Below the pieces are notes generated by a model, which worked only from the letters and a program-made list of their open reading frames with translations, made no database searches and was not told the DNA's origin. Shown piece by piece: positions 60,156 to 62,201 of a stretch of DNA of 64,000 nucleotides (its first letter is position 1; every line of letters begins with the position of its first letter). The position numbers and the translations under genes are program-made. The stretch is from NCBI GenBank assembly GCA_037445005.1, contig JBBILH010000003.1, positions 26,151 to 90,150 on the forward strand. The letters run 5' to 3'. The stretch is from Nitrospira sp. Lineage in GTDB: Bacteria > Nitrospirota > Nitrospiria > Nitrospirales > Nitrospiraceae.

Positions 60156-61457
60156 ATGAGGACATCGGCCGAACCACGTCTCGTCCAGAAACTCGACGGC
60201 CCTCCTTGGGACATCGAGGCCTACCTTAAGGTCGGCGGGTATGAGGCCTGGAAGCGATGCGTCAAGGATCTTACGCCTGACCAGATAGTCCAGGAACTGA
60301 AGACATCCGGTCTTCGGGGGCGGGGCGGGGCCGGATTTCCTACCGGTGTGAAATGGGACAAGGTGCTCAATCACCGGGTAAAGGAGCGGTATTTCGTCTG
60401 CAACGCCGGGGAACATGAGCCCGGCACGTTCAAGGATCGTCATCTTCTCAAGACCATTCCGCACCAGTTGATAGAGGGGTGCCTGATTGCCTCCAAGACG
60501 GCTCAAGCCAAGGCGTCGTTCATCTACGTCAACCACGAGTACCACGAAGAGCGCGAAAACTTGAAGAAAGCGCTGGCGCAGGCGAGGGAGCGGGGATATC
60601 TCGGGACGAACGTTTTTGGAAGCGGATTTGATATCGATCTGCAAGTGTTCGAAGGCCATGGCAGCTACGTGGCCGGTGAAGAAACCGCCATGCTTGAATC
60701 GATGCAGGGGCGTCCGGCGATGCCGAGGCAAAAGCCGCCGTTTTACCCGACGGATTACGGGCTCTACGGCAAACCCACGCTGGTCAACAATGTGGAGACC
60801 CTGTGTAATATTCCGCGCATTCTCTCGAAGGGGGCTTCGTGGTTCACGCAGGTCGGGACGGAGAAGTGCCCTGGGACGATGATGTTTTCTTTGAGCGGCG
60901 CGGTTGAGCGGCCCGGCGTCTATGAAATGCCGATGGGCGTTACGGTCCGCGAATTGATCGAACAGTGCGGAGGAGGCGTGCCGGGCGGCCGCAAGATCAA
61001 AGCGGTGTTCCCCGGTGGTCCGGCCTTCTCCATGATTACCGCCGATCAGTTGGATCTGCCGATGGATTTCGATTCGCTGAAGAAAGCCGGAACAGGATTG
61101 GGTTCCGCCGGTGTGATCGTCGTCGACGACGCCACCTGCATGGTCCGTCAGACGTTGAAGTTTTCGAATTTCTTCAAGGGGGAAAGCTGCGGGCAATGTC
61201 CGCCTTGCCGCATGGGGACGCAGAACCTGGCTTCATTGATGGCCAAGATCGAAGCGGGGCAGGGGACGCAAAAAGATTTGGACAGCCTGTTGCAGCTCTG
61301 CGGGTTCGTGAAGGGAACCGGCTACTGTACCCTCGTTACGGGGGCCTCGGTTCTGGTGCAGAGCAGCGTGAAACTATTCCGGCACGAATTCGAGGAGCAC
61401 ATCCGGCTACAGCATTGTCCCTATCCGCCGGCGCGGGTCGAAACGGCGGCGCACTGA
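60156..61457 (+). CDS. nuoF: NuoF-like NADH-binding flavoprotein (stand-alone)
   Basis: GLRGRGGAGFPTGVKW, EPGTFKDR, GEETA, NNVET, ESCGQCPPCR...C. Confidence 0.9.
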   Translation: MRTSAEPRLVQKLDGPPWDIEAYLKVGGYEAWKRCVKDLTPDQIVQELKTSGLRGRGGAGFPTGVKWDKVLNHRVKERYFVCNAGEHEPGTFKDRHLLKTIPHQLIEGCLIASKTAQAKASFIYVNHEYHEERENLKKALAQARERGYLGTNVFGSGFDIDLQVFEGHGSYVAGEETAMLESMQGRPAMPRQKPPFYPTDYGLYGKPTLVNNVETLCNIPRILSKGASWFTQVGTEKCPGTMMFSLSGAVERPGVYEMPMGVTVRELIEQCGGGVPGGRKIKAVFPGGPAFSMITADQLDLPMDFDSLKKAGTGLGSAGVIVVDDATCMVRQTLKFSNFFKGESCGQCPPCRMGTQNLASLMAKIEAGQGTQKDLDSLLQLCGFVKGTGYCTLVTGASVLVQSSVKLFRHEFEEHIRLQHCPYPPARVETAAH

Positions 61458-61467
61458 GAGGAACAGG

Positions 61468-61815
61468 ATGCCGCGCGTGACGTTTCTTCACTCGCAGGGC
61501 AAGAGCGGAACGGTGCCCCGAAACACGACGTTGCTCGACGCGGCCAAGGAACTGGGCTTTCCGTTGAACCACGATTGCGGAGGCAATGCGTCCTGTACCA
61601 CCTGCCGGGTGGAGGTTCAAAGCGGGGCGGAACATCTGTCGGACATCGAGTTCGAAGAGCAGGATTTGCTCGATCGGGAGGCGCTCAGCGAGCCTTGGCA
61701 CCGCCTCGGCTGCCAAGCCAAGGTGCTGGGGGACGTTGTCGTTCGAGTGCCGGAATCGAAGTGGGCGGCGCCGACCACGCGAAAATCCGAGGCGCAGGGT
61801 GTTGATATTCACTAG
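61468..61815 (+). CDS. fdx: [2Fe-2S] ferredoxin (ISC/adrenodoxin type)
   Basis: HDCGGNASCTTC...RLGCQ. Confidence 0.9.
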   Translation: MPRVTFLHSQGKSGTVPRNTTLLDAAKELGFPLNHDCGGNASCTTCRVEVQSGAEHLSDIEFEEQDLLDREALSEPWHRLGCQAKVLGDVVVRVPESKWAAPTTRKSEAQGVDIH

Positions 61816-61880
61816 AGAGGTGTTACACTAAGCCCATTGCAGTCGGTCCAGAAGGCCGGACTGTTCAGAAGGAGGACCCA

Positions 61881-62201
61881 ATGGTAACGATCACGCCGGT
61901 TGCGGAACAGAAGATTCAGGAGTTGATGAAGGAAGAAAAGGACGTCGTCGGGTTGCGCATCTACGTCCGAGGCGGCGGGTGCCACGGCTATCAGTACGGC
62001 ATGGCATTCGAGTCCAAAACGGCCGAAGACGATACCGTCATCGAGAAAGGCGACGTCAAGGTCATCATGGACTCCCAAAGCGCACCGCTCTTGCAAGGCG
62101 CGGAAGTCGATTACGTCGACAGCGTTCAGGGGTCGGGGTTTTCCATCAAGAATCCGCAAGCGAAGACGACCTGCGGATGCGGCAGCTCATTCAGCGCGTA
62201 A
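61881..62201 (+). CDS. erpA: A-type Fe-S carrier (ErpA/IscA)
   Basis: GGCHG, GAEVDY, NPQAKTTCGCGSSF. Confidence 0.9.
   Translation: MVTITPVAEQKIQELMKEEKDVVGLRIYVRGGGCHGYQYGMAFESKTAEDDTVIEKGDVKVIMDSQSAPLLQGAEVDYVDSVQGSGFSIKNPQAKTTCGCGSSFSA

Follow-up and report, generated by a model that had tools for sequence, protein, structure and literature searches.

The closest described counterpart of the locus reported here is a gene cluster of Nitrospira moscoviensis, in which Mundinger et al. (2019) found a nuoF gene, a ferredoxin gene and a gene for an Fe-S insertion protein (NITMOv2_4064/4063) to be highly expressed, and proposed that the cluster might interact with a complex I named CI_1 and join in ferredoxin reduction (PMC6606698). 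In the supplements of that work, nuoF and fdx stand at 556 and 748 reads per kilobase per million mapped reads (RPKM), and the ten CI_1 values comprise nine at 89-350 RPKM and nuoK at 23 RPKM; relative to the nine, nuoF is 1.6 to 5 times and fdx about 2 to 8 times higher (PMC6606698). Later papers and metabolic models credited ferredoxin reduction to CI_1, a 2M-type complex I, without evidence (PMC8407350, PMC9381531). The N. moscoviensis account, two sentences long, mentions no altered motif, separate clade, order-wide conservation or lost NuoE-linked residues. We analysed a window of 64,000 nucleotides (nt) from a Nitrospira sp. genome (assembly GCA_037445005.1, contig JBBILH010000003.1, positions 26,151 to 90,150 of the forward strand), which carries an orphan nuoF followed by a [2Fe-2S] ferredoxin gene, fdx, and by erpA, with mdh, a membrane-protein gene, nuoF and fdx arranged in the same order as in N. 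moscoviensis. The cluster is already known; the clade-level signature of its NuoF and the link of this signature to the NuoE-dependent switch appear to be new. Judged from the phylogeny, the orphan NuoF belongs to a clade that is old and distinct and did not arise as a recent duplicate of a complex I NuoF. We tentatively propose that NuoF and Fdx would together form an NADH:[2Fe-2S]-ferredoxin oxidoreductase of two proteins, independent of NuoE and not permanently built into complex I.

The nuoF gene (60156-61457, plus strand, 433 amino acids, aa) ends with a TGA stop at 61457. A 10-nt spacer, GAGGAACAGG (61458-61467), containing a Shine-Dalgarno-like GAGGA, separates it from the ATG at 61468 of fdx (61468-61815, plus strand, 115 aa, Pfam Fer2), which codes for a ferredoxin of the adrenodoxin/ISC type. 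The erpA gene (61881-62201, plus strand) follows 65 nt after fdx and codes for a 106-aa A-type Fe-S carrier of the ErpA type (NF010147 score 129.6, cut-off 117), with cysteines at positions 34, 98 and 100. The original prediction had described a ferredoxin gene 10 nt downstream of nuoF, no nuoE or nuoG beside it, and the reading NAGEHEPG for NADExEPG with the four N3 cysteines retained. The spacer is exactly as described, alignment confirmed both the motif and the cysteines, and NuoE or NuoG family matches were absent from the contig that holds nuoF (C3), those of the genome being on contigs C84, C34, C54 and C32. The observation is confirmed; the interpretation attached to it is partly supported, as set out below.

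The orphan NuoF contains the Pfam domains Complex1_51K (152 bits), SLBB (45 bits) and NADH_4Fe-4S (90 bits) and no extra domains. Against the curated family models it scored 525.4 on TIGR01959 (under the trusted cut-off of 558.65), 425.9 on NF010120 (over the cut-off of 389) and 408 on NF008436 (under the cut-off of 749). The AlphaFold2 model (AF2, pLDDT 95) showed a full NuoF fold, which superposed with a template modelling (TM) score of about 0.9 on solved NuoF/HydB chains (0.92 to 8E9H_F and 0.91 to 2FUG_1). The three-domain fold is the same as in complex I NuoF/Nqo1 of Thermus (2FUG/4HEA), Aquifex (6HL2-6HL4), E. coli (7AWT) and M. smegmatis (8E9G), with TM scores of 0.89-0.93, root-mean-square deviations of 1.3-1.9 Å for most chains and 40-45% identity. 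Also shared with these proteins are the length, the Gly-rich FMN loop GRGGAGFPTGVKW (residues 55-67), the four N3 cysteines (C345, C348, C351 and C391) and, in the alignment, the residues E86, E88, Y171, GEET (174-177), K193, F196 and NNVET, which we take to be FMN/NADH contacts. The second Glu of GEET excludes NADPH in E. coli NuoF; with GEET retained, the use of NADPH, which the original prediction had allowed, is unlikely.

In contrast to complex I NuoF, the orphan protein is encoded outside any nuo operon, has neither NuoE nor NuoG as neighbours and replaces residues that are otherwise nearly invariant. The NAGEHEPG motif (residues 83-90, nt 60402-60425) aligns with NADESEPG of Thermus Nqo1, with Gly in place of Asp94 and His in place of Ser96. 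Four near-invariant positions are replaced in all: Asp by G85, Arg by N126, Ala by H168 and Cys by A173, corresponding by alignment offset to Asp94, Arg135, Ala177 and Cys182 in Thermus/Aquifex numbering. The N3 motif has Q347 instead of Lys within its CGKC segment. Within a canonical comparison set of 115 sequences the replaced positions were 87-100% conserved, the Asp in 100% and the Arg of RGEY in 98%. Asp94 is presumably an FMN contact.

Sequences without this Asp (N-x-G/A/S-E) form a minority among NuoF-like proteins. Among the best 150 representatives drawn from 1.8 billion proteins, none from outside the order was more than 50% identical to the orphan NuoF. A FastTree phylogeny of 151 rows placed the Asp-less proteins on one side of a single branch, with the motif columns in or out, and in an IQ-TREE phylogeny of 76 rows under a mixture model the Asp-less branch had an SH-aLRT support of 100; complex I NuoF, HydB, HoxF, NfnB and FdsB all lie on the opposite side. 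The genome holds three NuoF-like genes. One belongs to a canonical nuoA-N operon (CI_2, contig C84) with a fused nuoCD, and its product is 45% identical to the orphan NuoF; another lies in a formate-dehydrogenase-type cluster of NuoE-like, NuoF-like and FdhA-like genes (C34; 41% identity); the third is the orphan itself. When compared with the complex I copies of its own genome, as the original prediction had recommended, the orphan NuoF fell outside the complex I clade (SH-aLRT 100), and this position together with the 45% identity argues that it is not a recent duplicate of a complex I subunit. The replacements run through the clade: Asp to Gly, Ala or Ser at position 85, Arg to Asn at 126, Ala to Pro or His at 168, Cys to Ala at 173 and Lys to Gln within CGKC. 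The Bfu-family (HydB, NfnB/StnB, HoxF and FdsB) has the same NuoF core and gave comparable sequence and structure scores, but its members keep the Asp, bear additional Fe-S domains at the N- or C-terminus and always occur with a NuoE-like subunit or domain; the orphan NuoF shows none of these features. The HydB-type extras, an N-terminal [2Fe-2S] and a C-terminal 2x[4Fe-4S] domain, are lacking in the 433-aa protein, which consists of the three core domains only, and the two groups are separated by the deepest split of the tree.

The replaced residues can be placed on a known structure. In the 1.8 Å structures of Aquifex NuoEF, the E95-S96 peptide lies between FMN and the NuoE cluster N1a, and it flips with the redox state of N1a, S96 bonding the carbonyl of D94 (PMC6560083). 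In one protomer of the reduced S96M variant, the E95 carbonyl is directed at Arg135 (PMC6560083). The positions of G85 and N126, which by alignment offset are Asp94 and Arg135 of the Aquifex protein, flank this peptide. We infer that the absence of NuoE and the odd motif may be one event, in which the lineage would have lost both NuoE and the residues surrounding the switch; the N1a-gated loop of canonical NuoF would then have been dismantled for want of NuoE. At the other Nitrospirota loci examined that have an Asp-less NuoF, no NuoE homologue was found within about 5 kb.

The same four pocket replacements would also fit a degenerate flavin site, in which NuoF neither binds FMN nor oxidises NADH and would serve the ferredoxin only as a scaffold or as an Fe-S (N3) protein that passes electrons; an FMN-less, ferredoxin-linked NuoF2 has been proposed for Nitrospina by Lücker et al. 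(2013) (PMC3578206). We regard this as very unlikely here. NuoF2 of Nitrospina is another protein, equipped with additional Fe-S domains, and in the orphan NuoF the Gly-rich FMN loop and the residues from E86 to NNVET listed above are all retained. Moreover, the whole pocket, with its new residues G85, H87 and N126, does not vary within the order, which points to a site in use and not to one in decay, and the median dN/dS of nuoF is 0.04.

This low ratio is shared by the neighbouring genes (fdx 0.07 and erpA 0.02, with dS near saturation): nuoF, fdx and erpA are all under strong purifying selection. The peptide YFVCNAGEHEPGTFKDR is identical in 104 of the 105 NuoF orthologues. The order hyp165-mdh-membrane protein-nuoF-fdx-erpA is retained in about 90 Nitrospira loci, across which ErpA is 87-99% identical. 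All four sampled families of the Nitrospirales (f1 to f4) have nuoF next to fdx, at NuoF identities of 58-93%, and in about 100 loci the fdx start lies about 5-70 nt past the aligned end of nuoF (tblastn coordinates). In three of these families erpA comes after fdx, family f2 having nuoF-fdx without erpA at the locus, and mdh precedes nuoF in f1, f2 and f3 as well as in G145, a genome of the sister order. Thus erpA and the genes upstream of nuoF come and go while the nuoF-fdx pair is constant, and the nuoF-fdx-erpA arrangement is far beyond chance. The orphan nuoF was not found in two of 40 relatives, both of them f4 genomes (88% and 73% complete) that encode the NuoG belonging to the 2M-type complex I, NuoG(2M).

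The loci of other clade members differ in their partners. In families f7 and f14, the Asp-less NuoF lies between membrane proteins made up of cytochrome b, a 4Fe-4S dicluster and MvhD/FlpD. The corresponding gene regions are L120:2798-8476 (f7) and L123:3058-7602 (f14); the flanking proteins measure about 700 aa in f7 and 700 and 356 aa at L123, the 356-aa one being without cytochrome b. The downstream flank of L120 has 693 aa, and the domain content was read on the other flanks. Open reading frames of 463-511 aa near these loci resemble heme-copper oxidase subunits by eye only. The f7 and f14 arrangements could represent an undescribed NADH:quinone or NADH:oxidase module without the membrane arm of complex I. 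In f15, the gene directly after a NuoF-like gene codes for a small [2Fe-2S] ferredoxin of the thioredoxin-like kind, a 'mini-NuoE' that lacks the helical domain; the instances are G068:C1:1324700-1326289 and G059:C1:1115363-1117066, taken at the best NuoF-like match, and in the f15 genome G077 (L126) the best NuoF-like match falls within the Asp-less clade. In f12, the Asp-less NuoF has no partner nearby. What these loci have in common may be a mobile NADH/FMN/N3 module that is coupled to one or another one-electron partner, and this variety of Fe-S and membrane partners favours the NADH:ferredoxin oxidoreductase reading of the Nitrospira pair. A metagenome scan with the Asp-less alignment, using generic NuoF patterns, returned mostly canonical NuoF/HydB loci and three new, short Asp-less contigs (L139, L142 and L178) offering little gene context, of which L178 has a 141-aa open reading frame with six cysteines ahead of the NuoF-like gene. 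A protein-cluster search for the orphan NuoF returned only generic NuoF clusters.

Modular NuoF-like inputs away from complex I, as proposed here, have been described before: Méheust et al. (2021) reported 31 clusters in which a stand-alone NuoF-like protein serves as the NAD(P)H input of an MsrQ-like membrane cytochrome (PMC8238504). Those clusters carry ApbE together with an FMN-binding protein and an MsrQ-like di-heme membrane protein (PF01794), whereas Pfam searches of the neighbouring genes found none of these at this locus.

The ferredoxin itself points to another family of electron-transfer chains. Its cysteines 37, 43, 46 and 82 have the spacing C-x5-C-x2-C-x35-C and its Fer2 score is 51.5 bits. 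The best matches in the PDB were the E. coli ISC ferredoxin 1I7H, 4LTU, 3AH7 and 2MJD, and included Yah1 and terpredoxin; adrenodoxin and putidaredoxin are further solved relatives. Ferredoxins of the adrenodoxin type are normally reduced by NAD(P)H-dependent flavoprotein reductases, and the known ones have potentials within reach of NADH. The proposed pair resembles the adrenodoxin reductase/adrenodoxin, putidaredoxin and Fpr/ISC chains in passing electrons from NAD(P)H through a flavoprotein to an adrenodoxin-type Fdx with the same cysteine spacing. It would differ from these class I chains in its reductase, which would be an FMN and [4Fe-4S] protein of the NuoF fold instead of an FAD-only protein of the glutathione-reductase or FNR fold. 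To our knowledge, no pairing of a NuoF-fold reductase with an adrenodoxin-type Fdx has been characterised.

The original prediction had cast Fdx as a replacement for NuoE. This part has no structural basis, as Fdx has a beta-grasp fold, like the N-terminal N1b domain of NuoG, and NuoE a thioredoxin fold; by this comparison, docking of Fdx near N3 would be at least as likely as a NuoE-like placement. A stand-alone 108-aa thioredoxin-like [2Fe-2S] ferredoxin of the Azotobacter/Clostridium type is encoded on contig C54 (L006:1498-1824). This ferredoxin shares homology with the half of NuoE that binds the cluster and is a candidate partner of the NuoE-less NuoF.

In the reaction that we propose, NADH would bind to the retained Rossmann/FMN site of NuoF and transfer a hydride to FMN, and single electrons would leave through the [4Fe-4S] cluster N3 to the adrenodoxin-type Fdx and from there reach ferredoxin-dependent enzymes. 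The pair might also run in reverse, from reduced ferredoxin to NAD+. ErpA would most likely mature the Fe-S clusters of the abundant NuoF-Fdx pair or of its clients. That FMN is still bound, that electrons move between N3 and Fdx, in which direction they flow and which acceptors they serve physiologically are what we infer from these comparisons. The oxidoreductase named in the original prediction is thus kept in part: the order-wide coupling of nuoF to fdx and the lack of a NuoE alongside speak for it, with NADH and not NADPH as the probable substrate.

Several points weigh against this proposal. The loss of Asp94 could mean that flavin binding is altered or lost. As a rule, canonical NuoF is isolated only as a complex with NuoE, so that a stable lone NuoF is hypothetical. 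In G145 the locus reads mdh-nuoF-erpA, with fdx missing from it. An adrenodoxin-type Fdx is probably too weak a reductant to drive 2-oxoacid:ferredoxin oxidoreductases, so that the high expression of the cluster lacks an obvious explanation. In the sampled genomes the distributions of the orphan NuoF and NuoG(2M) are identical.

The identity of Fdx raised the question of Fe-S biogenesis, to which the original prediction had assigned the electrons. NuoF and Fdx could be a dedicated supply, Fdx delivering electrons to IscU/IscS or to ErpA, where they would serve the reductive coupling of two [2Fe-2S] clusters into one [4Fe-4S] cluster; we consider both the supply and the ErpA step improbable. 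The isc operon of this genome (C45:19797-24884, iscS-iscU-iscA-hscB-hscA-iscX) lies on another contig, lacks the usual fdx and includes a second A-type carrier gene, iscA, and no SUF system was found in the genome, which is 99.95% complete and depends on ISC. These features, the ISC/adrenodoxin type of Fdx with the E. coli ISC ferredoxin as its top PDB match, and the position of erpA, which follows fdx in most families and nuoF directly in G145, are consistent with such a role. However, a second Fdx of 139 aa on contig C171 (L134:1-1898), 40% identical to the NuoF-linked one, is convergent with an FNR-like reductase gene, stands beside an Rrf2/IscR-like regulator and is kept in all four families. 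It is closer to the ISC ferredoxin (69 bits to 1I7H, where the NuoF-linked Fdx has 50, and 84 bits on TIGR02007, where the latter has 51.7) and would be the more natural ISC ferredoxin, although neither protein reaches the TIGR02007 cut-off of 132.1. The conservation of this second, more ISC-like Fdx argues that the NuoF-linked Fdx is a distinct conserved paralogue with a job of its own. The absence of erpA from the f2 locus also speaks against a supply to ErpA. As an electron sink, Fe-S assembly keeps in its favour the isc operon without fdx and has against it the ferredoxin on C171.

The most serious alternative, left out by the original prediction, is the published one (PMC6606698), in which the orphan NuoF would be the missing NADH/NAD+ module of CI_1, docked on its NuoG, with Fdx as an optional partner. 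The enzyme would run in reverse, driven by quinol and the proton-motive force, and make NADH or reduced ferredoxin. In this genome, CI_1 is a 2M-type complex I encoded on contig C32 (L128:743-14519) as nuoA-B-C-D-G-I-J-K-L-M-M-N, without nuoE, nuoF and nuoH. Its NuoG retains the full N1b/N5/N4/N7 domain set, whose canonical counterpart takes electrons from N3 of NuoF, and mdh, coding for an NADH consumer of the reductive tricarboxylic acid cycle (rTCA), is syntenic upstream of nuoF. None of the sampled Nitrospirales families lacks NuoG(2M) or the orphan NuoF, G145 has both as well, and elsewhere among 150 genomes of the phylum the matches are at paralogue level. The two also show a similar extra divergence in f4, at about 0.85 of the f2 identity compared with 0.94 for complex I NuoF, a weak comparison of three clades. 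This shared distribution, however, is that of a single clade and reflects one evolutionary event, so that it does not distinguish co-inheritance of the two proteins from partnership. Downstream of the operon on C32 lie genes for a CHASE3 histidine kinase and for response regulators.

The remaining evidence makes this docking, and likewise the reversed enzyme, unlikely in our view. The one canonical nuoH of the genome is in the CI_2 operon (C84), so that NuoH must be common to both complexes unless the 2M enzyme has a different architecture; if CI_1 must borrow at least NuoH from CI_2, it could take NuoE and NuoF from there too. No orphan nuoE exists. The orphan NuoF is not a duplicate of a complex I NuoF, the other members of the Asp-less clade have no complex I genes within the examined flanks of about 5 kb, and in N. 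moscoviensis the nuoF and fdx transcripts exceed those of CI_1. The two f4 genomes described above have NuoG(2M) without a detected orphan NuoF, a point weakened by their incompleteness. A second NuoH-like gene was considered as an orphan subunit of the 2M complex and rejected, as it is part of a group-4-[NiFe]-hydrogenase-like (Ehr-like) cluster on contig C15 (L138:2834-11759) with NuoL-, NuoH-, two NuoM-, fused NuoCD- and NuoB-like genes. This membrane cluster adjoins genes for a Cu/Zn superoxide dismutase and two c-type cytochromes.

A further reading is a 'split complex I': the soluble NuoF and the membrane-bound 2M complex I would be joined by a diffusible Fdx and not by docking. The 2M enzyme with its five pumps would use quinol and the proton-motive force to reduce Fdx at NuoG, and Fdx would feed ferredoxin-dependent enzymes, or NuoF for the NADH of the rTCA, mdh being next door. 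We give this reading a low probability, well below that of the NADH:ferredoxin oxidoreductase.

The surroundings of the pair agree with a separate transcription unit. A sigma-70-like promoter, TTGACG-N18-TATAGT (60086-60115, plus strand, 10 of 12 consensus positions), lies ahead of nuoF, and its parts CCTTGACG and GTATAGTA are kept across orthologous Nitrospira loci. Footprinting of 56 Nitrospira loci, with the upstream regions anchored on the -10 box, revealed a further conserved element, CCTAAC-N4-TTGAGATTCAGGCCTATTCT (60044-60073, plus strand), upstream of this promoter. The conserved promoter and element together indicate that nuoF heads its own unit. The element may be a binding site for a regulator; at up to four mismatches it is single-copy in this genome, apart from one weak match, and as no second copy was found, no regulon could be inferred from it. 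A weak promoter-like site with a TG extension (61802-61829, plus strand, 9 of 12 consensus positions) precedes erpA, and an Rfam search over 59800-62500 returned no RNA element.

Upstream of this unit, mdh (58336-59277, plus strand) codes for an NAD-dependent malate dehydrogenase, an rTCA enzyme (TIGR01763 score 437.7, cut-off 351.85). Between mdh and nuoF, as in Nitrospira generally, lies a gene for a 195-aa membrane protein (59350-59937, plus strand) that resembles the N-terminal domain of PuuD (Urate_ox_N, PF06181, E 9e-19), without the cytochrome c module. Its N. moscoviensis counterpart, NITMOv2_4065, is transcribed above the median (PMC6606698 supplements). The gene is a neighbour of nuoF in f1 and in some of f3, but in f2 and f4 it maps to other contigs or at a distance of 50-90 kb; we considered its product as an anchor for the NuoF unit, and its membership is uncertain. 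The catalytic-subunit-like protein of a ferredoxin:thioredoxin reductase (FTR), with the motifs CPC...CAC...CHC, is encoded on the minus strand (54169-54615), between an HDOD gene and the VWA gene of a CbbQ/VWA cluster. The original prediction had named this FTR as another possible recipient of the electrons, but the gene lies 5.5 kb from the nuoF cluster on the opposite strand with four genes intervening, and is not operonic with it.

Nitrospira is the dominant nitrite oxidiser of soils, waters and wastewater plants, and its electron donor is a very weak one; how the NADH and the reduced ferredoxin that CO2 fixation demands are obtained from it is a question that this pair makes testable. The nuoF and fdx genes, among the more highly transcribed ones of N. 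moscoviensis, are small enough for direct expression and assay, and the NuoF-Fdx pair may be a new type of ferredoxin reductase. If the split complex I were true, the pair would be part of the long-sought Nitrospira route by which electrons of nitrite are raised to low potential, and the Asp-less clade would be a widespread and so far undescribed class of proteins that interconvert NADH and ferredoxin without NuoE. The clade offers a natural experiment on the role of NuoE and of the N1a-gated switch, including the control of reactive oxygen production.

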